A stretch of DNA of 64,000 nt from Candidatus Saccharimonadota bacterium (GTDB lineage Bacteria > Patescibacteriota > Saccharimonadia > Saccharimonadales > 2-12-FULL-41-12), in NCBI GenBank assembly GCA_022842995.1, contig JALHOM010000005.1, forward strand, positions 6,503 through 70,502. Reading direction: 5' to 3'. Of the stretch, positions 4,927 to 55,229 are shown piece after piece; the stretch's first letter is position 1; each line of letters begins with the position of its first letter. Position numbers and translations under genes: made by a program. The notes beneath the pieces were generated by a model. It searched no databases. It was not told the origin of the DNA and saw only the letters and a list, made by a program, of their open reading frames with translations.

Positions 4927-6231
4927 ATGCGAGTATTGAGCGACGAAGTGAGCAGTCACGTTGGTAAAAAAATTAGTATTTCTGGATGGGTGCATAAAAA
5001 GCGCTTACTTGGTGGCTTAACTTTCTTGAATATTCGTGATCGCCATGGCTTGATTCAGGTTGTTGTCCAGGATAAAAGCGAAGTCGAGAAACTTCGCGGT
5101 ATGCAGATCGGTACCGTGGTTGTTATCGAGGGAACTGTTAAGGAAGAACCCCGAGCACCAGGCGGTGCAGAGCTGCATGACCCGGTTGTGACCGTTGACG
5201 TGCCGGTTATTGACGAACCTTTGGTCGAGATTGACAAGCCCTTAAGTCATAAGTCAGAGCACCTCGATACCTTGTTTGAATATCGAGCTATTGGCCTTAG
5301 AAACCTTCAGGAAACCAAGATTTTTAAAATCCGTTCTCAGTTATTGAAATACATCCGCGAGTATCTGTATGCTCAAGATTTTGTAGAGATCAATACGCCA
5401 AAGATTGTCGCTGGTGCGGCCGAAGGTGGTGCAGAAGTCTTTAAGCTTGATTATTTTGGTCAAGAAGCAACTCTAGCCCAGAGTCCACAACTCTATAAAC
5501 AAATGATGGTGGGTGTTTTTGAACGAGTATTTGAGATCGCGCCGGCGTTTCGTGCCGAATTATCGGCTACAACCAGGCACGTATCTGAAGTTACGATGCT
5601 TGATGTAGAGATGGGATTTATTGATGGCCATGAAGACGTTCTTAAATTCCTTGAAAGCCTGCTTTACGAGGTGCTTACGCGTCTATACGCAGAAAATGAA
5701 CCCGAGCTTAAGTCTCTGAACGCTCCGGCATTGACACTGAAGTCAGAGTTTCCGCGCTACACGATGGCCGAAATCCATGAGCTATACCAGAAACACACTA
5801 AGATTGATGTGAGCAACGAGATCGATCTAACTCCAGACGAAGAGCGTTGGATTTGTGAGTATTCCAAGAAGCAGCATGGCTGTGAAGCAGTCTTCGCAAC
5901 GGGGCTACCAGCGAGCAAAATGAAGTTTTATCACATGAAAGGCGAAGGGGGCGTTGCTCTGTCGGCAGACCTGCTATTTAGAGGAATAGAGATTTCTACG
6001 GTGCCTCAGCGAGAGCATCGACTTGAGGTGTTGATCGAGCAGATGAAAGAAGCTGGCGTAGATCCTGAGAGTCAGGGTTTTGCTGCTTACGTGAGCGCTT
6101 TTCGGTATGGCCTGCCGAAACATGGTGGCTTTGGCTTCGGTATTGATCGTCTGACGGAAAAAGCAATTGGTCTCAACAACGTTAAAGAGGCTATACTCTT
6201 CCCACGTGATATCAACAGGCTTGCACCGTAG
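4927..6231 (+). CDS. aspS: aspartate--tRNA ligase, class IIb archaeal/eukaryal type
   Basis: OB-fold N-terminus; class II motifs FRAELSATTRHVSE and GGFGFGIDRL; C-terminal LFPRDINRLAP, as in archaeal-type AspRS. A GAGAGGAAGAG Shine-Dalgarno sequence precedes the ATG at 4927 (ORF opens at 4876). Confidence 0.8.
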   Translation: MRVLSDEVSSHVGKKISISGWVHKKRLLGGLTFLNIRDRHGLIQVVVQDKSEVEKLRGMQIGTVVVIEGTVKEEPRAPGGAELHDPVVTVDVPVIDEPLVEIDKPLSHKSEHLDTLFEYRAIGLRNLQETKIFKIRSQLLKYIREYLYAQDFVEINTPKIVAGAAEGGAEVFKLDYFGQEATLAQSPQLYKQMMVGVFERVFEIAPAFRAELSATTRHVSEVTMLDVEMGFIDGHEDVLKFLESLLYEVLTRLYAENEPELKSLNAPALTLKSEFPRYTMAEIHELYQKHTKIDVSNEIDLTPDEERWICEYSKKQHGCEAVFATGLPASKMKFYHMKGEGGVALSADLLFRGIEISTVPQREHRLEVLIEQMKEAGVDPESQGFAAYVSAFRYGLPKHGGFGFGIDRLTEKAIGLNNVKEAILFPRDINRLAP

Positions 6232-6332
6232 GGTATTCTTGGTAACCTAAACCCCTGTATTCGCGTAATTGTCTAGTTTTTTACACTTTTTGGCGCTACA
6301 CTAACGAGTAGTAGAGGTGCAAAAAGCGAGGG

Positions 6333-6941
6333 ATGGGTAAACAGCGAAAAGTCCGGCTTACGAAAACCACTAGTTTGTTGGCATTATTTGTTGTGGCCGC
6401 AGTGGTTAGCGTCATGGTTGGGGTTATCGTTAAATCAGATTCGAAAACATCGACGAACGAGAGTTCTGCCTCGCAGCAGGCCAAGAAGTTTGAGATAAAA
6501 AAGGCTTGTGACGTTGTGTCGCAAGCGAAGGCTGTCGAATTACTCGGCGGAACTGCGGTTCTTGGCGAGTTAGGCGATTCAGCTACCGCCTCTAGTGAGG
6601 ATATTGATCTTACCAAGTGTCGCTACTTGGATTCCGAGTCGTCAAGCACGTTTTCTGGCGATACTTCTGGCAAGGAATTGTCGATCGTCGTACGGAGCCC
6701 TAAGAACGGTAGTGGCTTATCGGCAAATCAAAAAGTGTTTGACGAAGCTTTTTTGCCGCTAAATAGTGAATTAGTCGATGGTGTCGGTGAAAAAAGTTTT
6801 TGGAATAAAGAATTCGGGCAACTGAACATTCTCGACGGTCAAGGGGTTTGGTATACCGTCGAGTTTGGGTCAAGAATCAGTGCGAATCGTGCGCTAGATG
6901 AGACTAAAAGGGCTGCAGTCGAATTGCTACCGAGGCAGTGA
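6333..6941 (+). CDS. hypothetical membrane-anchored/secreted protein
   Basis: Long ORF with an N-terminal basic region and a TM helix (LLALFVVAAVVSVMVGVIV). No recognisable domain. Confidence 0.5.
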   Translation: MGKQRKVRLTKTTSLLALFVVAAVVSVMVGVIVKSDSKTSTNESSASQQAKKFEIKKACDVVSQAKAVELLGGTAVLGELGDSATASSEDIDLTKCRYLDSESSSTFSGDTSGKELSIVVRSPKNGSGLSANQKVFDEAFLPLNSELVDGVGEKSFWNKEFGQLNILDGQGVWYTVEFGSRISANRALDETKRAAVELLPRQ

Positions 6942-7053
6942 CGTATATTTTATAGCAGAAAACAATCTGGTGTAGCTGCGTTCATGTATGGTATGCTTAT
7001 GGTTGAAAGTCAAATAAAATAAAAACAATAAAAATAAGTAATAAGTTTTTCTG

Positions 7054-9663
7054 ATGGCTAAGAAACCAAAAGATAACGATGACAGTGGCATAACCTACTT
7101 CGGTGAGGCTATTGATCCTGATATTCAGAAAAAAGTCGATGACTACATGGAGCTCGAAGATGAAGTCGCGGGCGAAGCCGATAGTATTCCTGACGAGCCT
7201 CAAGTTGATTTAGGTGGTGTTGGAGTACGTGATCCCGAGGTTGAGAGCGCCCCTCTTCTGCCAACGGACAAATTACCGGATGATCTAAAGGCCGACAAGT
7301 CAGGAGTCAAAAAGTCCACTAAAGTGGCGGTCCTGCATGCGGATGAATTAGTTAAAGAAGTCGAGGACGCTGGAGCGATAGAGACTGACGCCGGTGGAAT
7401 TCCCGGCGACACTCCAGGGCTGAACGATGAGGCGGAAATACAGCCCGCGGCCGAAGAGGCTGATTTGGCTGCGGCCGAAGAACTGGTTCAATCTCAGCCG
7501 GCTAAAAAGCCAAATTCAAAGAAGATTATGGTAGCTCATGATGAGGACCCTGAAGAGAATGTAGGCCCTGATGTTGAGCCAAGCGAAGAGCCTGCGATAG
7601 ATTCTGTGGACGCGCCGGTCAAAGCTGATGAAAATGTTGCTCAAGGCGAACTTGAGCCTCAGTCGAATAAGATAAATATTCGCGTCGACGAATCTGAAAA
7701 TTCGTCCGCTGATCGGGAGCCGACAGTCGACGATGACGCCGAGGCCTCCGATGTCGTACATCTGGCGGATGAAGAAATAGAGGCTCTGTCCGACGAGCAA
7801 GATGACGACGAAGAGTTTGATCAGAATGCAACTGTTGGTGAATACCTCGATGATTTAGAAGCGAATGACGAACCTAAGGCTCCCCTGCATCAGGCTCAAG
7901 ATCTGACCGACTTTGTTCCAAAGGAATCTTCCACTATTAATTCTTCTATTCCAATGGATGACGCAGTAACCTCGCAGGCGATTGCCGATATCATGGCTAC
8001 CGACTCCGATACGTTGCTTGGTATTGAAGACAAGAATAAGAAAGAAGCGCCACCGTTAGCGGTTGAACCAAAGAAGAAGAAAAGTAAGGCGAAACGACCG
8101 AATATCTTTAAGCTTCTTTTCACGAAGCCGCTCTATAGAAATAGTCTTATTGCGGCTATTTTATTGGGTATCGGAGCTGTCGCCGCAGTTCCGGTGTCGC
8201 GTTATTATATGCTTAATGCGGCCGGCGTACGCGTTTCTACAAGTCTTAAAGTTTTAGACGAAAAAACATCCCTGCCTCTGAAAAATGTTGAGGTTACTGT
8301 TGACGGAAAAAGTTCGAAAACCGATGGCGATGGCAATGTGTCATTGAGCGGCATTCGGCTTGGCAGGCAAGAGATCGTCGTTAAAAAGCCAGCTTTTGCC
8401 GAACTGAAGAAAACACATGTCTTAGGCTGGGGGAGTAACCCATTAGGTGATTACCGTATTGCTCCTACTGGCATTCAGTACAGCTTCAAGTTAATCGACT
8501 GGCTTTCTGAGAGACCAATAGCCGGCGGGGAAGTGTCTTATGGAGAAGCGGTGGCAAAGATCAGCGAAAAAGGTGAGGCGGTCTTGACGTTACCTGCAGC
8601 CGAAGAAACGACTATAACCGTTGATATTAAGGGTGATAATTATCGGATCGAGAAACAAGAGGTGAAAACCACAGCCAAAGACCAGATAGTGGTTAAGCTA
8701 GTTCCAAGTAAAAAACATGTCTTTGTATCAAAGCAGAGCGGTAAATACGATCTCTATAGCGTAGATGTTGACGGCAAAAACGAAGAAGTTTTGGTGAGTG
8801 GATCGGGTGTTGAAAAGCCAGATAGTCTGGGGATCGCACTTCATCCTAAGAAGAACATGGTTGCCTATACGGCGAGTCGTGAGAACACTAGAAATCAGGA
8901 CGGTTTTGTATTGACGACACTTTACATGGTTGACCTTGAGTCTAAGGAGATTAAGAAAGTTACGCAGTCGGAAAGAATTCAGATTATTGATTGGATAGGC
9001 GATAGGTTCGTTTATGTCAAAGTGGCCCAGGGTGCGTCCGAAGCGACGCCAGATAGGAACCGGTTGGTAAGTTATGACCTGGAATCTGGTCAGGAAAAAG
9101 AGCTGGCCAGCACTAATTACTTTAATGACGTTATTTCGGCCGGCGGAGCCCTGTATTACAGCCCGGCTCAATATCAAGTTACCGGCAGTGTTGGTTTGTA
9201 TAAAATCAATGCCGATGGCAGTAACAAAAAAACAATTTTCCAAAAAGAAGTATGGAATCTCTTTAGAACTAGCTTTGACAAATTAAGCCTGTCGGTTGGC
9301 CAAGATTGGTACGAACTTACTTTGGCTAACGATAGCCTGACAAAAGTCGGCGGAGCACCAAGCGTCCTTAAATCACGGGTCTATGTGCCAGACAGTGACG
9401 GCAAACGAAATCTTTGGATTGATGAAAGAGACGGCAAGACGGTTCTTATGAATTACCAAACTGCCACTAAATCTGAACAGCCACTGATCACACAATCGGG
9501 TATTCGAAATCCTGTTCGATGGCTTGATGATGGTCATATTATCTACCGCGTGTCTGATGGCCAGGAAACGGCGGACTACGTCTACTCTATAAATGGTAGC
9601 GATCCAAAGAAAATTAGAGACGTCACCAATACGGCTGGCATTGATCGCTGGTACTATTTTTAA
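7054..9663 (+). CDS. large hypothetical protein: acidic disordered N-terminus, one TM helix, carboxypeptidase-regulatory-like and TolB/PD40-like beta-propeller region
   Basis: 869-aa ORF. About 340 aa are D/E/P-rich low-complexity sequence, followed by a TM helix (SLIAAILLGIGAVAAVPV), then beta-rich repeats (GKYDLYSVDVDGKN, DGKRNLWIDERDGK) of TolB/PD40 style. Confidence 0.55.
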   Translation: MAKKPKDNDDSGITYFGEAIDPDIQKKVDDYMELEDEVAGEADSIPDEPQVDLGGVGVRDPEVESAPLLPTDKLPDDLKADKSGVKKSTKVAVLHADELVKEVEDAGAIETDAGGIPGDTPGLNDEAEIQPAAEEADLAAAEELVQSQPAKKPNSKKIMVAHDEDPEENVGPDVEPSEEPAIDSVDAPVKADENVAQGELEPQSNKINIRVDESENSSADREPTVDDDAEASDVVHLADEEIEALSDEQDDDEEFDQNATVGEYLDDLEANDEPKAPLHQAQDLTDFVPKESSTINSSIPMDDAVTSQAIADIMATDSDTLLGIEDKNKKEAPPLAVEPKKKKSKAKRPNIFKLLFTKPLYRNSLIAAILLGIGAVAAVPVSRYYMLNAAGVRVSTSLKVLDEKTSLPLKNVEVTVDGKSSKTDGDGNVSLSGIRLGRQEIVVKKPAFAELKKTHVLGWGSNPLGDYRIAPTGIQYSFKLIDWLSERPIAGGEVSYGEAVAKISEKGEAVLTLPAAEETTITVDIKGDNYRIEKQEVKTTAKDQIVVKLVPSKKHVFVSKQSGKYDLYSVDVDGKNEEVLVSGSGVEKPDSLGIALHPKKNMVAYTASRENTRNQDGFVLTTLYMVDLESKEIKKVTQSERIQIIDWIGDRFVYVKVAQGASEATPDRNRLVSYDLESGQEKELASTNYFNDVISAGGALYYSPAQYQVTGSVGLYKINADGSNKKTIFQKEVWNLFRTSFDKLSLSVGQDWYELTLANDSLTKVGGAPSVLKSRVYVPDSDGKRNLWIDERDGKTVLMNYQTATKSEQPLITQSGIRNPVRWLDDGHIIYRVSDGQETADYVYSINGSDPKKIRDVTNTAGIDRWYYF

Positions 9664-9693
9664 CCAGTATACGATCGGTATAATTCATTTATA

Positions 9694-10518
9694 GTGATAA
9701 AGCACGACACCGACACATTTATTCGTACGTTGTGGGATTTTTATTCTCGGCAAGCACGCAGTACGCTACCCTGGCGAGCGCCTGAGGCTACCGGGGAGTT
9801 CGATCCATACAAAATTGCCGTGTCCGAACTCATGCTCCAGCAAACCCAAGTAGAGCGGGTAATACCCTATTACGAGCGTTTCATCAAGGAGTATCTTCGG
9901 CTGGAATTGCTTGCCCAAGCTAATCTTGAGACAGTTCTCGCCATGTGGCATGGTCTTGGCTATAACCGCCGGGCAAAGTATCTGCGCGACATGTGCAAGA
10001 TAATTCAGAACGATTATGACGGTGTATTCCCTCTGGAAATGGACAGTTTAAGGTCCTTGCCAGGAATTGGTCATAACACAGCCGCTGCAATACGCGTGTA
10101 TTCCATTAATGCTCCAGAAATTTTTATCGAAACAAATATTCGTACGGTCTATATACACCATTTCTTTAAAGCGGCTAAAAAGGTTGACGATGACTCCATA
10201 AAGGACCTGCTTGTGAATACGCTCGATAGGTCAAATCCGCGCGAATTTTATTGGGCACTTATGGACTACGGGACGCATCTTAAGAAAATTCACCGGGGCG
10301 TTAATCAAAAAAGTACACAATATGTTAAACAGGCTCCTTTCGCGGGGTCTAAGCGTCAGTTACGAGCGCTTATTTTACGGCGGATTACCAAGGGGGAATT
10401 ATCTGTCCAGGAGTTGCAGAAGGAGCTTAAAGATACGCGTTTATTGGGAGTTCTCGATGATCTTGTTCGCGAAGGTTTACTCGTTAAAAGATTGGATAGT
10501 TATAGTATTGCAGACTAG
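9694..10518 (+). CDS. MutY/Nth-family HhH-GPD DNA glycosylase (MutY-like, no Cys cluster visible)
   Basis: LPWR...DPYKIAVSELMLQQTQVERVIPYYERF and the HhH motif LPGIGHNTAAAI. GTG start. Confidence 0.7.
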   Translation: MIKHDTDTFIRTLWDFYSRQARSTLPWRAPEATGEFDPYKIAVSELMLQQTQVERVIPYYERFIKEYLRLELLAQANLETVLAMWHGLGYNRRAKYLRDMCKIIQNDYDGVFPLEMDSLRSLPGIGHNTAAAIRVYSINAPEIFIETNIRTVYIHHFFKAAKKVDDDSIKDLLVNTLDRSNPREFYWALMDYGTHLKKIHRGVNQKSTQYVKQAPFAGSKRQLRALILRRITKGELSVQELQKELKDTRLLGVLDDLVREGLLVKRLDSYSIAD

Positions 10519-10597
10519 TGCCGGGATAGTTTGCGGGGGTTAGAAGTGGTGTTCATTTTGATATGATACAATTTAAGCTAAAGCGGATACGCAATTT

Positions 10598-11032
10598 ATG
10601 AAAGACGATGGAGTAAAACAGCCACCAAAAACCACTGAGCCGGTTATTGTTCAGGACGTTATCCCTGTCGCGCAAAATACTGTCGACTCTGGTGCGCCAG
10701 ACGCTACTTCTCCAAAGCCTGAGTCTACGCCTCCTGCCCTGATGGGCACAGATGAACCGGTCGCGGCCTCAAAAGATGAGGTAGTGAGTTCTCCTGTCCA
10801 AACGGACGAAGCGCATGAAGCATCTAAATCCCCGGCGCCTGAAGCCAATCACGATTCAGATGAAATAGTTCCGAATGCACCACAAAACTCGAATCCTTCT
10901 CCGGGGGTTAAGTCGACTCAGGACGCTCAGAAGCCTTCGAAAAGTGGCGGTGGAGCCATGTTTGCCATCGGAGTAGCAGTAGTTATATTCCTTGCTCTGG
11001 CCGGGCTGGCTGTTTATTCACAGATCAAATAA
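10598..11032 (+). CDS. hypothetical Pro/Ser/Ala-rich protein with C-terminal TM anchor
   Basis: 144-aa ORF of low complexity with a C-terminal helix (MFAIGVAVVIFLALAGLAVY). Confidence 0.45.
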   Translation: MKDDGVKQPPKTTEPVIVQDVIPVAQNTVDSGAPDATSPKPESTPPALMGTDEPVAASKDEVVSSPVQTDEAHEASKSPAPEANHDSDEIVPNAPQNSNPSPGVKSTQDAQKPSKSGGGAMFAIGVAVVIFLALAGLAVYSQIK

Positions 11033-11033
11033 G

Positions 11034-11963
11034 CTACTTTTTGCGTGAACTTGCGAGGCGCCTAGTCGATGTGACTTGAGGCGGAGTATCCTGGGTAAGA
11101 GTTACGTGCATATACGGGATTTTAATTTTTTCCTTGCGGAGCTCTTCGATCAAGAGCTTATAAAAGGCGCCCTTTACTTCCCAGGAATCATCAGATGTTG
11201 TTTTGCCGATTATTTTGACGCGTATGCCATTAGCGTCAAACCCGTCGACGCGGAGAAATTGTGGCGGTTCTTTGATTTTTTTCTTCATTTCAGGGTCGGC
11301 TGCTAACTTTAGTCCTGTTTTATTTATGACTGATTCGATCTGTTTAATATCGCTACCGGAATCAAATATAATATCCTCCTCTATACCTCCGTAGCTAGTG
11401 GTTTTATTGGCCGTCCAGCTGATGCTACCGTTGGGTACGTGAAATAATGTTCCGTCGAGACTCCTGATGACCGTCGTCCTGATGGTGATCGCCTCGACTT
11501 TTCCCGAGACCCCGTTGTCGAGGGCAATAACGTCGTCAACTCGGTACTGGTTCTCGATTATGATAAACAGGCCACTTGTGAGGTCTTTTATGAGACTTTG
11601 AGCGCCAAAACCAAGGGCTACGCCGATAATTCCCGCACTGGCAACCATGGGCGTTGTATTAAGCCCCAATTCGGCTACGATCATAATACCGGCTACGACA
11701 AAGATTGCGACACCAAGGACTGCTTTTATAAGACTCTCGAGTGTTTTTAAGCGTTTGATTCGGTCGGTTTTGGTTGGGTAAAGATCTGGCCGGACGGTTT
11801 TTTGTAAAACGCGCATTACTAGTTGGGTGCCAAATTTTTTACATAACCAAGCGATCGCAATAATGCCAAGTATCGGAAGGGCATGCTCGCTGGACCAATT
11901 ACCGATTGAGTCTACTGAGGCATTGTATATTTGCTCGATTTGTTTAAATAACTCTTCGTCCAC
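11034..11963 (-). CDS. mechanosensitive ion channel family protein (MscS-like)
   Basis: Three TM helices followed by the MscS beta-domain pattern (FIIIENQYRVDDVIALDNGVSGKVEAITIRTTVIRSLDGTLFHVPNG). Confidence 0.8.
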   Translation of the reverse strand: MDEELFKQIEQIYNASVDSIGNWSSEHALPILGIIAIAWLCKKFGTQLVMRVLQKTVRPDLYPTKTDRIKRLKTLESLIKAVLGVAIFVVAGIMIVAELGLNTTPMVASAGIIGVALGFGAQSLIKDLTSGLFIIIENQYRVDDVIALDNGVSGKVEAITIRTTVIRSLDGTLFHVPNGSISWTANKTTSYGGIEEDIIFDSGSDIKQIESVINKTGLKLAADPEMKKKIKEPPQFLRVDGFDANGIRVKIIGKTTSDDSWEVKGAFYKLLIEELRKEKIKIPYMHVTLTQDTPPQVTSTRRLASSRKK

Positions 11964-19489: not shown

Positions 19490-21064
19490 TTATTTGGCGG
19501 CGGCAATTTTTGATAGTGGCCGGGATGACTTATCGCCGATCAGCCGTTTATAGGCTAATTCAGCGCTGATCAGGCACATAGGCATACCGATACCCGGCAC
19601 GGTCGTTGCTCCTACGTAGAGCAGGTTGGGAATTTTTGGATGCTGATTATTGGGCCTAAAAATGGCGGTTTGCTTGAGCGTATGGGCAAAGCCGAGCGCC
19701 GTGCCTTGGTATGAGTGATAGTCGCTTTCGAATTCTTTGGCCGTGTAGAGTTTTTTGTAAACAATCTTATTCTTAAACCCTGGCATGCGGAGTTGGCGTT
19801 CCATGGTATCGAGGATTTTCTCGGCATAGTCTTGGTAATCTTGTTCGCTAAATTTGAGCGTTGCTGGCAAGGGGACCAGTGCGAAGATATTCTCGTGGCC
19901 TTTCGGGGCGACCGAAGGGTCGGTTTTGTTGGGGTTACAGACGTAAAACGAAGGATCATCGGGTAGTGCCTTCGTGTCGAATATCGCTTTGAAATTTTTG
20001 TTCCAATCTTTTGAAAATACGAGGTTGTGATGCTCGAGTTCTGGATATTCACCTTCAATACCCAAGTACATCAACAAAGCACTGGGCGCCATTGTGCGCT
20101 TGCCCCATGATTTTGCACTAAACTCTCGGTGCCCACTGTCGAGTAGCTGTGTATCGGTAAAGTGTCGGTCGGCGTTACTGATGACAATGTCTGCTTTAAG
20201 TTCTTTGCCTCCCGCTATAACGCCGGTTGCCCGTCCCCCGCTTACCTCTATCGACGAGACAGGAGAACTAAGGTGAATCTTAACCCCACGGTCTTCACAT
20301 AATTTTGCCAGACTTTTTGTGAGCTCGTATATTCCGCCCATAGGGTAGAAAACGCCTTGCTTGAAGTCGACATGAGACATGATGTTGTAGAGTGCTGGGG
20401 TGTTTTTAGGGCTCGCCCCTAAGAAGACGACGTGGTAGAGCAGGATTTTTTGTAATTCTTTTGAAGTGAATTTCTTAGAAACGTATTTTTCTAAATTACT
20501 TAACACGTTAAGCTTTAGGCCTTCGGTCATCATTTGCGGTGTCATAAAGTCACGCACAGAGTCATAGTTTTTGTATAAAAAACGCTCCATGGCAATCTTG
20601 TATTGTTTTGATGAACTGTGGAGGTATTTTTCTAGTTTTTCGACCGCTTGAGGCTCGAGGGCTTCGAGAGTTGGCTTATCTTTAGTCAGGTTACCGTGGA
20701 TTTTAGTAAGGCCAATTAGGGTGTCCTTAAAAACGACCTGATAGCTCGGGTCAAGTCGGATAAGATCAAGATGATCGTTAATGTCTTCGCCAAGTAGCTT
20801 GAAATAATGTTCAAAGACGTCGGGCATGAGATACCAGCTCGGGCCAGTATCGAACCGGAAGGTATCTTTTTTTGGTTTAGCACTTATCGACTGTTCTCGC
20901 CAGATGCCGTTTTTATCTTTGCCGACCTCTATCATCCCTGCGCGGCCACCGATGTGGGCGTTTTTTTCGAAGATTTCAACGTCAAATCCGGCCTCTGCGA
21001 ATAGTGCAGCGCTCGATAGACCGCCGTAGCCTGATCCAATGATGATTACTTTACGCTTCGGCAT
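19490..21064 (-). CDS. crtI: phytoene desaturase family FAD-dependent oxidoreductase
   Basis: N-terminal dinucleotide fold VIIIGSGYGGLSSAALFAEAGFDVEIFEKNAHIGGRA. CrtI-like length (524 aa) and C-terminal GTxPGxG-like VGATTVPGIGMP. Confidence 0.8.
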   Translation of the reverse strand: MPKRKVIIIGSGYGGLSSAALFAEAGFDVEIFEKNAHIGGRAGMIEVGKDKNGIWREQSISAKPKKDTFRFDTGPSWYLMPDVFEHYFKLLGEDINDHLDLIRLDPSYQVVFKDTLIGLTKIHGNLTKDKPTLEALEPQAVEKLEKYLHSSSKQYKIAMERFLYKNYDSVRDFMTPQMMTEGLKLNVLSNLEKYVSKKFTSKELQKILLYHVVFLGASPKNTPALYNIMSHVDFKQGVFYPMGGIYELTKSLAKLCEDRGVKIHLSSPVSSIEVSGGRATGVIAGGKELKADIVISNADRHFTDTQLLDSGHREFSAKSWGKRTMAPSALLMYLGIEGEYPELEHHNLVFSKDWNKNFKAIFDTKALPDDPSFYVCNPNKTDPSVAPKGHENIFALVPLPATLKFSEQDYQDYAEKILDTMERQLRMPGFKNKIVYKKLYTAKEFESDYHSYQGTALGFAHTLKQTAIFRPNNQHPKIPNLLYVGATTVPGIGMPMCLISAELAYKRLIGDKSSRPLSKIAAAK

Positions 21065-21109
21065 TGCTCTCCTAGCGGGGTCTGTATTTATTAAATGTAA
21101 AACTTAACG

Positions 21110-21442
21110 TTGAGCTATATAATACCAGGGATGGACCAGCTGCTCTATGGGATAATCTTGGTATTTTCACTTCTCGGTCTTGGGTTTGCCGATTATAGGC
21201 ACAGGCTAGTCTTTTTTTATCAGCCAAAAACCGCGCTTCGGTTGTATTTATTATTCCTCGGATTTTTCTTGTTATGGGACGTTGCCGGGATCGTGAGCGG
21301 TGTCTTTGCCACTAATCCGGTGTATGTTAGTGGGGTGTACTTTTTTAGCCCAGATATGCCTCTTGAGGAGTTATTGTTTTTGAGTTTGTTTTTTTATAAT
21401 ACGGCTATCGCTTGGAGGCTTGTATGGCGACATATTTCTTAA
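21110..21442 (+). CDS. lycopene cyclase domain protein, small subunit 1 (CrtYc/CrtYe-type)
   Basis: About 100-aa three-TM protein, first of an overlapping pair beside crtI and a UbiA prenyltransferase. An alternative ATG lies at 21131. Confidence 0.7.
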   Translation: MSYIIPGMDQLLYGIILVFSLLGLGFADYRHRLVFFYQPKTALRLYLLFLGFFLLWDVAGIVSGVFATNPVYVSGVYFFSPDMPLEELLFLSLFFYNTAIAWRLVWRHIS

Positions 21443-21720
21443 TCGGCCTACCTTTTATTGCGGCAGTCCTTGTTGTTGATATTTGGATATTAAAAACTCG
21501 GGTCGTAAAAAAGCGCCAAACATGGATGGTGATGCTGGTTTTGATGATCATGACGGCAATCTTTGACCAATATCTAACCGGGCGGCCGATTGTTTTATAT
21601 GACGACTCACTGCGTAGTGGCATAACGATCGGCTATGCGCCAATTGAGGACTTCATGTACACCTTTGCCGCCGTCATTGGGCTTGGTTCGATCATGAAGA
21701 AGTTCGGCATGCTGGAATGA
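21424..21720 (+). CDS. lycopene cyclase domain protein, small subunit 2 (CrtYd/CrtYf-type)
   Basis: About 100-aa three-TM protein with PIEDFMYTF (the PxE(E/D) cyclase motif). It overlaps both neighbours. Confidence 0.7.
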   Translation: MATYFLIGLPFIAAVLVVDIWILKTRVVKKRQTWMVMLVLMIMTAIFDQYLTGRPIVLYDDSLRSGITIGYAPIEDFMYTFAAVIGLGSIMKKFGMLE

Positions 21721-22589
21721 AGCTCGATATTCGAAGACTGGCGATAGTTAGTCGACCGTTTTGGTGGGTCAATACTGGTGTACCGTTTCTGGCAGGAGCT
21801 TTGCTAGCCGATAATAATCTTAGCCCGGCTCATATTGTCGGGTTTATCTATTTCTTGGTCATCTATAACCTGCTTATGTATGGGGTGAATGACATTTACG
21901 ACTATGAGTCGGATATTAAAAATCCGCGGAAAAACGGCTCGATAGACGGCTCGGTTCTTGATAAAAAATTACATTCCAGGCTCTGGGTAATCATGCTGGC
22001 CCTCAATGTTACCTTTTTAGCCTATTTTGTCTGGATAGGCAGCGCGGTATCCTCGTTATTTTTGCTTGCCATGGTTTTCTTGGTGTTTGCTTATAGCGTT
22101 AAGGGGCTTCGCTTTAAAGAGCGACCAGTTCTTGATTCGCTGACCTCGGCTTTTCATTACGCGTCGCCGTTTTTGTTTGGACTTTTACTACTGGGTGAAA
22201 TTGGCGAGTGGTGGGGCGTATTTATCGGGTTTTATCTCTGGGTATGTGGGAATCATGCTTTTGGTGCCATCCAGGACATTGTGCCGGATAAAAAAGCCGG
22301 GATTTCGTCTATCGCCACCAAACTTGGCCCTCAGGCGACACTATTTTTTGTGATTAGCATGTATGTATTTGCTGCGGCAAGTTTTCCGGTAGTTTATGGA
22401 GCGGTTGGCTTGCTGGGCAGTATTGCCGTAGCGCCGTATCTTTTGTTTGCTCTGAAATGTCTGCCAGATAGAAATCGGAGTATTTCACCGCGTTTTCGCC
22501 GGTATTGGCGGTACTTTTTATATGCCAATTACGCCGTTGGGGCGCTTGGAACAATGACAGTTGCCCTGTATTTAGCTATAATTAGATAA
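21717..22589 (+). CDS. crtEb: UbiA-family prenyltransferase, lycopene elongase type
   Basis: SRPFWWVNTGVPF, YGVNDIYDYESDIKNPRK, LRFKERPVLDSLTS and GAIQDIVPDKKAGISSIAT closely follow the CrtEb/LyeJ pattern as I recall it from Corynebacterium CrtEb. ATGA overlap with the upstream gene. Confidence 0.8.
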   Translation: MKLDIRRLAIVSRPFWWVNTGVPFLAGALLADNNLSPAHIVGFIYFLVIYNLLMYGVNDIYDYESDIKNPRKNGSIDGSVLDKKLHSRLWVIMLALNVTFLAYFVWIGSAVSSLFLLAMVFLVFAYSVKGLRFKERPVLDSLTSAFHYASPFLFGLLLLGEIGEWWGVFIGFYLWVCGNHAFGAIQDIVPDKKAGISSIATKLGPQATLFFVISMYVFAAASFPVVYGAVGLLGSIAVAPYLLFALKCLPDRNRSISPRFRRYWRYFLYANYAVGALGTMTVALYLAIIR

Positions 22590-27424: not shown

Positions 27425-27778
27425 TGGTGGGGGCGGCTGGACTTGAACCAGCGACCAATCGGTTATGCGTACCACTACAGCTTTCGCTGCCTTTTTCAAG
27501 TTTGCTGGTCTGGACTGTCTCTTCATCCGCTATGTATAACGGAGCCTGCCATTCAGTCTCTACACCTTCCCGTGTTTTTTACGCGACGGGCTTGGCTCGG
27601 GATTACCATATTAAAGGCTTCCCCGAATTTGACAGGATATACTTACTAGTTACCCGGTAAGCAGCCCTTTTTTATGCGACATGTCTAAGGCTGAAATCTG
27701 ATAATAAAATCAGTGCAGAATTTAGATTTAGTTACATGTAAATTGAGCCGACTGCTCTAACCACTGAGCTACGCCCCC
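27425..27778 (-). tRNA. tRNA(CAU), ileX/tRNA-Ile2-like (or elongator Met), interrupted by a group I intron in the anticodon loop
   Basis: Joined exons give the 76-nt sequence GGGGGCGTAGCTCAGTGGTTAGAGCAGTCGGCT|CATAACCGATTGGTCGCTGGTTCAAGTCCAGCCGCCCCCACCA. This is a full cloverleaf with a G1-C72 pair (not initiator-like), anticodon CAT and an encoded CCA. The D-loop and TTGGTCGCTGGTTCAAGTCCAGC match E. coli ileX as I remember it. Confidence 0.85.
27468..27745 (-). ncRNA. group I intron, subgroup IC3 (Azoarcus/Anabaena tRNA-intron type), 278 nt, no ORF
   Basis: The minus-sense sequence contains GTCAAATTCGGGGAAGCCT, TATGGTAATCCCGAGCCAAGC and GAAGGTGTAGAGACTGAATGGCAGG. These are near-identical to core strings of the Azoarcus tRNA-Ile intron as recalled. 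P3 CCTG/CAGG, P7 GACTG/CAGTC and a P9 CAGC-GAAA-GCTG hairpin are present. The 5' exon ends in U33 and the intron ends in G. Confidence 0.85.
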
Positions 27779-54731: not shown

Positions 54732-55229
54732 TCATTTAATCTTGAAGACTGTAAGGATGTCGCCCATCGAAGAGATGTAATTTTGGGGATTTTTCTTATA
54801 ATCTTCGATCAATGTTGGTATTTCTATCCATTTGATTTGCTCTACTTCGGATTCTTGATACGTAAAGTAATCGAGCGGTTCGTCAATCACGGCCGTAAAC
54901 CAGTGGGTAAAGTAGCGGTAAGGCCCGTTGATCATATGCTTCGGACCAACTTCAATACTGATGCCTGTTAACCCTAACTCTTCTTCGGCTTCGCGCTGAA
55001 TTGTTTGGAGGTAGGTGTCGTCGCCCTCTACCGTTCCACCCACGGCTTCACCCCACCTGCCGGGATCGAGCTTTTTATCAAACTTTCTTTGGGCGAGCAA
55101 GACCTCATTTTTGCTGTTGGTGATCCATAGGGATGCGCCTCGATATATGTCTTCGGCTGGGATAATTTCTGCGCGCTCTTTGTAATTAATGATCGCGTCA
55201 TTTAAATCGACGATGGGGACTTTTGTCAT
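54732..55229 (-). CDS. NUDIX hydrolase
   Basis: Nudix box GGTVEGDDTYLQTIQREAEEELGL. Confidence 0.8.
   Translation of the reverse strand: MTKVPIVDLNDAIINYKERAEIIPAEDIYRGASLWITNSKNEVLLAQRKFDKKLDPGRWGEAVGGTVEGDDTYLQTIQREAEEELGLTGISIEVGPKHMINGPYRYFTHWFTAVIDEPLDYFTYQESEVEQIKWIEIPTLIEDYKKNPQNYISSMGDILTVFKIK

Follow-up and report, generated by a model that had tools for sequence, protein, structure and literature searches.

A 64,000-nucleotide stretch of a Candidatus Saccharimonadota genome (contig JALHOM010000005.1), referred to here as the window, carries at positions 19490-22589 a compact module of four genes, crtI, cycA, cycB and crtEb, which we predict to encode the second half of a pathway to a cyclic C50 carotenoid. 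Our preferred interpretation, to which we assign a probability of roughly 0.6, is that the module is native to its Saccharibacteria lineage and that the early genes of the pathway, those for geranylgeranyl diphosphate (GGPP) synthase (crtE) and phytoene synthase (crtB), lie at another place in the genome, an arrangement known from some corynebacteria. The four open reading frames (ORFs) are confirmed precisely at the coordinates given for them by an earlier interpretation made without database searches (the sequence-only reading), and the region is organized as follows.

19490..21064, minus strand: crtI, flavin adenine dinucleotide (FAD)-dependent phytoene desaturase family, 524 amino acids (aa), divergent from the other three genes
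21065..21130, no strand assigned: crtI-cycA intergenic region, short and divergent, the presumed common promoter region
21131 (ATG)..21442, plus strand: cycA, first (CrtYe-like) subunit of a predicted heterodimeric C50 carotenoid cyclase, 103 aa
21424 (ATG)..21720, plus strand: cycB, predicted CrtYf-like second cyclase subunit, 98 aa
21717..22589, plus strand: crtEb, predicted CrtEb-type lycopene elongase of the UbiA family, 290 aa

The matches of the module genes to their families are far beyond chance, and the three plus-strand genes show operon-like coupling: cycA and cycB overlap by 19-31 nt, and the cycB stop and crtEb start codons overlap in an ATGA sequence. ATG 21131 is the likelier start of cycA, the alternative being a TTG at 21110 that would give a 110-aa product, and ATG 21424 is the likely start of cycB (a TTG at 21412 would give 102 aa); cycB is also called as a 98-aa gene on an identical Logan contig. 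A TATAAT sequence is located at about 21118-21123, immediately 5' of the cycA ATG. Because a consensus sigma-70 promoter scan of the crtI-cycA intergenic region reported no site, we only infer a promoter role for 21065..21130.

From its family, motifs and position in trees, the crtEb product (Pfam UbiA, E 4e-26) is a predicted lycopene elongase of the CrtEb type. Three paralogous NCBIfam prenyltransferase equivalog models were calibrated on fetched loci (Kocuria, Aquiluna, L013 and L072), and the window protein passes the first of these alone, failing the two LyeJ-type models.

NF009608/PRK13105, elongases 3' of the cyclase pair: Kocuria 419 bits, Aquiluna 376 bits, Saccharibacteria L013 318 bits; window 269 bits; cutoff 217
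NF010119/PRK13595, actinobacterial elongases with a CrtD-like gene 3' of them: Kocuria second copy 416 bits; window 158 bits; cutoff 248
NF009516/PRK12875, the LyeJ-like type of the candidate phyla radiation (CPR): L072 231 bits; window 146 bits; cutoff 205

Models for MenA, UbiA and MqnP give 44 bits or less, and the sequence-only reading was right to place this prenyltransferase with the lycopene elongases and not with MenA/UbiA. Aspartate-rich motifs of the UbiA superfamily bind prenyl diphosphate and Mg2+, and those of the window protein (N58-D59..D62..D66 and D187..D191) are invariant across 35 homologues. In neighbor-joining (NJ) trees, 98% and 96% of bootstrap replicates set the CrtEb-type clade apart from the two LyeJ-type clades, and the CrtEb proteins of group 1 (the loci with the same gene content as the window; see below) form a clade with those of loci L085 and L101 at 96%. 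The function of CrtEb-type enzymes has been set genetically in Corynebacterium glutamicum (Heider 2012, PMC3598387) and in Kocuria rhizophila (bioRxiv 10.1101/2020.01.08.898668).

The cycA and cycB products are predicted to form a heterodimeric C50 carotenoid cyclase of the CrtYe/CrtYf type, with a one-to-one correspondence to the subunits encoded in the crtB-crtI-crtYe-crtYf-crtEb cluster of Aquiluna. CycA is related to the first Aquiluna subunit (40% aa identity, E 1.4e-21), with which it has a PLEEL motif in common, and CycB to the second (35% aa identity, E 3.8e-15), with a common PIEDF motif; cross-matches to the opposite Aquiluna subunit all have E values above 2 and none is significant. 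The motif PxE(E/D) is present in both proteins. CycB matches PF18916 (Lycopene_cyc, E 1.1e-10) and the TIGR03462 lycopene-cyclase domain model (61.8 bits), and CycA has a borderline match to the latter (39.6 bits, cutoff 39.4). The cyclase pair is located 5' of crtEb in 11 of the 12 loci that share the window's chromosomal site (described below) and encode a CrtEb-type elongase, the exception being L008. Among all CrtEb-type loci the pair is missing only from L008 and from L017, where the locus begins at crtEb at a contig end, and it is found in none of the LyeJ-type loci. Family models, subunit matches and gene overlaps thus bear out the earlier description of a C50-carotenoid-type module in the actinobacterial order crtI, crtYe, crtYf and crtEb.

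The crtI product lies well above the subfamily cutoff of TIGR02734 (crtI_fam; 498 bits, cutoff 238), matches Pfam Amino_oxidase (E 1.5e-24), and has an N-terminal FAD-binding Rossmann motif of the form GxGxxG (GSGYGG). Its best equivalog model is NF058655, 'CrtID bifunctional phytoene desaturase/3,4-desaturase', at 577 bits with the cutoff of 640 not reached; the same model gives 560 bits with the CrtI of L085 and 398 bits with that of the group-2 locus L013. All equivalog cutoffs are missed, and the enzyme may act on phytoene only or may carry out 3,4-desaturation too. A database-wide search with the window CrtI yields at least 120 matching protein clusters at 51-64% aa identity, every named one of which is from Saccharibacteria or Patescibacteria, compared with 38-41% identity to actinobacterial CrtI proteins. 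The clade of window-type CrtI has 78% bootstrap support, or 97% when CrtI proteins of Bacteroidota and CPR are included, and its grouping with CrtI from the LyeJ-type clusters of Bacteroidota and CPR has 94-97% support (NJ). Group-2 CrtI proteins are monophyletic at 100% and are placed together with the window CrtI in 0% of replicates. CrtI proteins from CrtEb-type and LyeJ-type loci are intermixed in the tree, which identifies CrtI as the constant partner and the elongase cassette as the changing part. By these relationships the module is a mosaic, with a CrtI of the lineage paired with LyeJ/CruF (bacterioruberin-type) genes and an elongase and cyclases of the CrtEb/CrtYef lineage.

We give very little credence to the reading in which the window genes belong to a bacterioruberin-type (LyeJ/CrtD/CruF) pathway, as annotated earlier for Patescibacteria. 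It would agree with the labels lyeJ, crtD and cruF given to homologues in that group (Haro-Moreno 2023, PMC9948471), with 'CrtID' as the best-scoring model for the window CrtI, and with the presence at the same chromosomal site in L103 of a LyeJ-type UbiA gene and a Caroten_synth gene. However, the window elongase falls with the CrtEb type both in its model scores and in the tree, there is no match to PF04240 (CruF-like) among the window proteins, and the window contains the cyclase pair that LyeJ-type loci lack. With a CrtEb-type elongase, a cyclase pair and no CruF-like gene, a cyclic product is therefore predicted and not an acyclic hydrated one.

The route that we propose would have three steps. 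CrtI would desaturate phytoene to lycopene, and CrtEb would add a C5 unit from dimethylallyl diphosphate (DMAPP) at each end of the lycopene to give an acyclic C50 carotenoid such as flavuxanthin. The CycA/CycB heterodimer would then cyclise the ends, giving a pigment of the decaprenoxanthin, sarcinaxanthin or C.p.450 type.

Several features indicate that the module is at home in its genome. The window has a gene content typical of Saccharibacteria (including genes for ComEC, a lamin-tail-domain protein, an S8 peptidase, a Mur ligase and DivIC), and the organism, which the sequence-only reading had supposed might be an ultra-small epibiont, is indeed a Saccharibacterium; CrtEb homologues occur in more than 30 species representatives of Saccharibacteria/Patescibacteria in a genome scan. 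In GC content, GC at third codon positions (GC3) and codon usage the module is indistinguishable from the other 57 window genes, with GC z-scores within +-1.8 and a relative synonymous codon usage correlation of 0.56 versus 0.68 +- 0.10 in randomly drawn gene sets of comparable length; no foreign signature is apparent. The chromosomal site itself is conserved in the window and in 14 other genomes, with proteins about 47-74% identical, and has the order mechanosensitive channel, MazG, Mur ligase, major facilitator superfamily protein, ABC-2 transporter and crtI, followed across the divergent junction by cycA, cycB, crtEb, Dus, HxlR and flavin mononucleotide (FMN) reductase.

The closest relative, L088 (CrtEb 74% identity), was used to examine selection. 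Nonsynonymous and synonymous differences per site (pN and pS) across the module are 0.14-0.16 and 0.72-0.92, with pN of 0.139 and pS of 0.754 for cycA and 0.143 and 0.922 for cycB; synonymous sites are saturated even in this comparison, and the results are given as pN/pS plus two dN/dS values. The pN/pS ratio is about 0.15-0.22, resembling that of the neighbouring dus and hxlR genes, and dN/dS for crtEb is about 0.08. Native composition, synteny conserved in 15 genomes and low pN together argue that the module is old, vertically inherited and under purifying selection, with no recent import.

These observations weigh against a recent horizontal gain of the whole module from an actinobacterial host, which we regard as very unlikely. 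In its favour, the genes are arranged as in actinobacterial clusters, the closest CrtEb homologues with a name outside the CPR are from Microbacteriaceae and Micrococcales (43-46% aa identity), and the CrtEb proteins of group-3 Saccharibacteria group with those of Actinobacteria at 72% (NJ). Against this, about 100 CPR homologues are closer to the window CrtEb than any actinobacterial one, the composition is native, the site is conserved across deeply diverged genomes, and the CrtI is not of the actinobacterial type, falling in a separate clade. The proposal in the sequence-only reading that the module came from an actinobacterial host lineage is thus disfavoured as a recent or simple event; the link of the window's CrtEb clade to Actinobacteria has 39% bootstrap support only (NJ). 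It is possible that a crtYe/Yf-crtEb cassette passed in ancient times from Actinobacteria to CPR or the reverse.

It also strikes us as scarcely probable that the genes are a decaying relic, unused since the loss of the early pathway. Relatives in which the site has been depleted step by step would fit such a history, with L008 lacking cyclases, L104 having crtI and a UbiA gene only, and L102 having crtI only. However, the four window ORFs are intact with conserved motifs, the pN/pS values are comparable to those of dus and hxlR, and 11 genomes retain all four genes at 47-74% protein identity.

At the right end of the module, a sigma-70-like promoter is present within the 3' end of crtEb (22554-22582, plus strand; ATGACA, a 17-nt spacer and TATAAT, with 11 of 12 consensus matches). 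The dus start is just downstream of this element, 5 bp past the crtEb stop, and dus may therefore have its own promoter plus read-through from the carotenoid genes.

The window contains no recognizable early-pathway genes. Profile hidden Markov models (HMMs) built from 26 CrtB and 20 CrtE sequences, using actinobacterial-cluster references verified by Pfam and run without filters (--max) against all six-frame stop-to-stop ORFs of at least 50 aa, gave no crtB or crtE match (best E = 2.8). Pfam scans of the 63 ORFs taken as genes (of 73 in the window of at least 110 aa) revealed no SQS_PSY, polyprenyl_synt or UppS domain and no domain of the methylerythritol phosphate (MEP) or mevalonate (MVA) pathways or of isopentenyl diphosphate isomerase (IDI). 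The absence of crtB and crtE from these 64 kb, already noted by the sequence-only reading, therefore stands. A 165-aa NUDIX protein (54732-55229, minus strand) was considered as an IDI and rejected (42 bits, cutoff 127); it matches a generic Nudix hydrolase best, the Cys of the 'C-G-H-P' region of IDI is missing from it, and it is probably not an IDI. The sole prenyl synthase near the module among the 14 other site-sharing genomes is a generic polyprenyl synthase 8 kb away in L104, which at 26-34% identity to every CrtE was rejected as a retained CrtE. Unannotated neighbours in L004 and L085 were likewise set aside as hidden phytoene synthases, having either no family match or a weak UbiA-like one.

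Relevant to the question of substrate supply are two genomes with the window type of CrtI, L101 and L105, in which crtE and crtB adjoin crtI. L101 lies within both the CrtEb clade of the window (96%) and its CrtI clade, and its adjacent crtE and crtB argue that the lineage once had its own early genes; and since other Saccharibacteria, L101 included, hold complete clusters, the phylum in general does not need host carotenoids. A search of 5.8 billion proteins with a CrtB profile built from 15 Saccharibacteria sequences found none of three group-1 contigs (771,351, 832,861 and 817,656 bp) among the matches listed (7,414; floor 330 bits), a result without weight because the L101 CrtB itself scores 299 bits. 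Unclustered crtB and crtI genes are reported in corynebacteria (Heider 2012, PMC3598387).

The alternative is that no phytoene synthase is present anywhere in the lineage and that phytoene, lycopene or partly desaturated carotenes reach the epibiont's membrane along with lipids scavenged from a host that makes carotenoids, an actinobacterium for example, and are converted to the cell's own C50 pigment, with DMAPP also host-derived. No crtB is seen in the window or around the module in the 14 site-sharing genomes, whichever elongase cassette they carry, and in all the other CPR clusters seen crtE and crtB adjoin crtI. The isoprenoid genes reported for freshwater Saccharimonadia cover only the C10-C20 steps, with no C5 pathway (PMC9166423), and an origin in actinobacterial hosts has been proposed for the retinal of Saccharibacteria rhodopsins (Jaffe et al. 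2022, PMC9296517). The patchy erosion of the module in L008, L102 and L104 would also fit a variable external supply. On the other side, the DNA on which the absence is judged amounts to just about 8% of a genome some 0.8 Mb in size, L101 has crtE and crtB beside a module with the same CrtEb and CrtI types, and unlinked crtB and crtI have the corynebacterial precedent noted above; the negative database result lends no help to either view. We know of no carotene transporter or uptake route. Supply by the host is possible but in our view unlikely. A tentative and fuller form of it, to which we would give no greater weight, is that the lineage lost phytoene synthase and that a single conserved site swaps CrtEb/cyclase and LyeJ/CruF sets which remodel C40 carotenes of the host membrane into the cell's own C50 pigments; if true, an epibiont would for the first time be seen to finish a pigment pathway on host-made hydrophobic intermediates.

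Our preference is for a native late pathway with its early genes elsewhere in the genome, and we estimate that a split pathway with an unlinked crtB is favoured over host-derived lycopene or phytoene by roughly two to one. A number of points nonetheless count against this interpretation. In the window, crtB is absent from the 19.5 kb that precede the module and the 41.4 kb that follow it, and in 10 of the 14 other genomes with this site it is absent from the 7.5-10 kb to each side; in the remaining four (L002, L003, L005 and L088) less than this distance is readable on at least one side, and that DNA also contains no crtB. Because no crtB was found around the module in the window or its relatives, the location of the early genes 'elsewhere in the genome' is an assumption. 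The enzyme functions are inferred by homology with genetically characterised Corynebacterium and Kocuria enzymes, the window CrtI being below the cutoff of every equivalog model and CycA barely at that of TIGR03462 and without any Pfam match. The trees are all neighbor-joining, and branching inside the CrtEb clade is weakly supported. Finally, the loss of the cyclases in L008, and of everything but crtI in L102, means that the pathway is not uniformly kept.

C50 clusters in Saccharibacteria have three architectures, and this comparative picture adds new detail to what has been described. These, together with individual loci that depart from them or that occupy the window's site with different contents, are as follows.

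Group 1 (the group of the window): only crtI, cycA, cycB and crtEb
Group 2 (for example L013, L086 and L020, the last from the Baikal-deep-G192 metagenome-assembled genome): crtI-crtE-crtB divergent from cycA-cycB-crtEb
Group 3 (L024, L030 and L087; 755-kb contig): actinobacterial order crtE-crtB-crtI-cycA-cycB-crtEb
L101 (Candidatus Saccharibacteria, contigs of about 0.9 Mb): CrtI and CrtEb of the window's types, with adjacent crtE and crtB
L008, 8391-10852: at the window's site; crtI abuts crtEb, with no cyclase pair
L102, 8979-11896 (1.19-Mb contig): at the window's site; crtI alone between HIT/ABC genes and Dus
L103, 8369-11629 (JGI 804,390-bp contig): at the window's site; LyeJ-type UbiA, Caroten_synth (PF04240, CruF-like) and a CrtI of the window clade
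L104, 9022-11707 (1.05-Mb contig): at the window's site; crtI and a LyeJ-type UbiA
L085 (833-kb contig): at the window's site; a different CrtI in operon order, with a glycosyltransferase family 2 (GT2) gene and a putative degenerate second UbiA-like gene
L105, 8089-13055 (GCA_006844875.1, 632-kb contig): crtE-crtB-crtI, LyeJ-type UbiA and Caroten_synth, with a CrtI of the window clade, among TrmB-family regulators

At the shared site the elongase cassette thus consists of CrtEb with cyclases, of CrtEb alone, of a LyeJ type with or without CruF, or is absent altogether, with CrtI constant throughout. The L103 arrangement points to a switching of cassettes between cyclic-C50 and bacterioruberin-type tailoring genes. 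A metagenome scan with the window CrtEb gave 13 loci and no intermediate architectures among them: the group-1 locus L088, the fragment L089, which is too short to classify, and 11 others comprising eight complete group-2 or group-3 clusters and three that are too short to judge.

In L020 (SICB01000004.1, Patescibacteria Baikal-deep-G192) crtB, crtE and crtI are arranged divergently to the genes of a cyclase pair and an elongase of the CrtEb type at about 5900-10810, and the locus predicts a cyclic C50 carotenoid instead of bacterioruberin, although the same genome is reported to contain the bacterioruberin genes lyeJ, crtD and cruF (PMC9948471). We suggest that genes earlier called 'bacterioruberin' in Patescibacteria include cyclic-C50 (decaprenoxanthin-like) clusters.

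Glycosyltransferases accompany the carotenoid genes at some of these loci. In L086 (4745-6760, minus strand), as in L013, the elongase is fused to a GT2 domain to give a 671-aa protein with UbiA and Glycos_transf_2 domains, which suggests that a glycosylated C50 carotenoid could be produced by one fusion protein. In L085 a GT2 glycosyltransferase gene is present upstream of the module (5556-6689), and a 264-aa membrane protein encoded downstream (10908-11702), with a weak match to a LyeJ-type model (64 bits), may be a degenerate second prenyltransferase.

The pathway is of a known kind, in a phylum where related genes had already been noted; what is distinctive in the window is the mosaic make-up and the lack of early genes in cis. 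Related clusters are found in Kocuria, Arthrobacter arilaitensis, Micrococcus luteus (sarcinaxanthin; crtE2/crtYg/crtYh) and Dietzia (lbtABC). The decaprenoxanthin cluster of C. glutamicum has the order crtE-cg0722-crtB-crtI-crtYe-crtYf-crtEb (PMC3598387), and the window resembles it in its three late enzyme types, in the order of crtI, two cyclase subunits of about 100 aa and a UbiA-type elongase, and in the overlaps of the small genes. It differs in lacking crtE and crtB in cis, in having an inverted, divergent crtI of another CrtI lineage, and in its bearer, a Saccharibacterium of about 1 Mb or less and not an actinobacterium. The complete Saccharibacteria clusters (group 2, group 3 and L101) are from the same phylum and have the same cycA-cycB-crtEb cassette, and L101 also has the CrtEb and CrtI clades of the window in common, but in all of these crtE and crtB adjoin crtI and the chromosomal contexts are different.

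Bacterioruberin loci of the LyeJ/CrtD/CruF kind, in haloarchaea, Arthrobacter and the Saccharibacteria loci L103, L104, L105, L072 and L060, are similar in that a C50 product is made from lycopene via a UbiA-family elongase. The CrtI lineage of the window is one that accompanies LyeJ/CruF genes in Saccharibacteria, and in L103 and L104 the genes are at the chromosomal site of the window's module; the window differs in its CrtEb-type elongase and cyclase pair and in lacking the PF04240 gene present in L103 and L105. Saccharibacteria type-1 rhodopsins provide a precedent for an isoprenoid-pigment function for which a host-derived precursor has been proposed (PMC9296517), although these are cofactor-binding proteins whereas the window encodes biosynthetic enzymes; Pfam scans of the window ORFs revealed no rhodopsin gene in the 64 kb.

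C50 carotenoids protect membranes and make them stiffer, and to our knowledge ultra-small Saccharibacteria epibionts have no fatty acid synthesis of their own. A selected and intact late pathway in such cells bears on the question of how they build and tune their membranes.

Elsewhere in the window, at 27425-27778 (minus strand), a group I intron apparently splits the anticodon loop of a tRNA-Met(CAT) gene. There is a match to Rfam RF00028 at 27487-27697 (68 bits), and ARAGORN, if long introns are permitted but not otherwise, reports a tRNA-Met whose 278-nt intron is at position 34. The stretch occupied by the split tRNA-Met also gives a weak tmRNA-like match.

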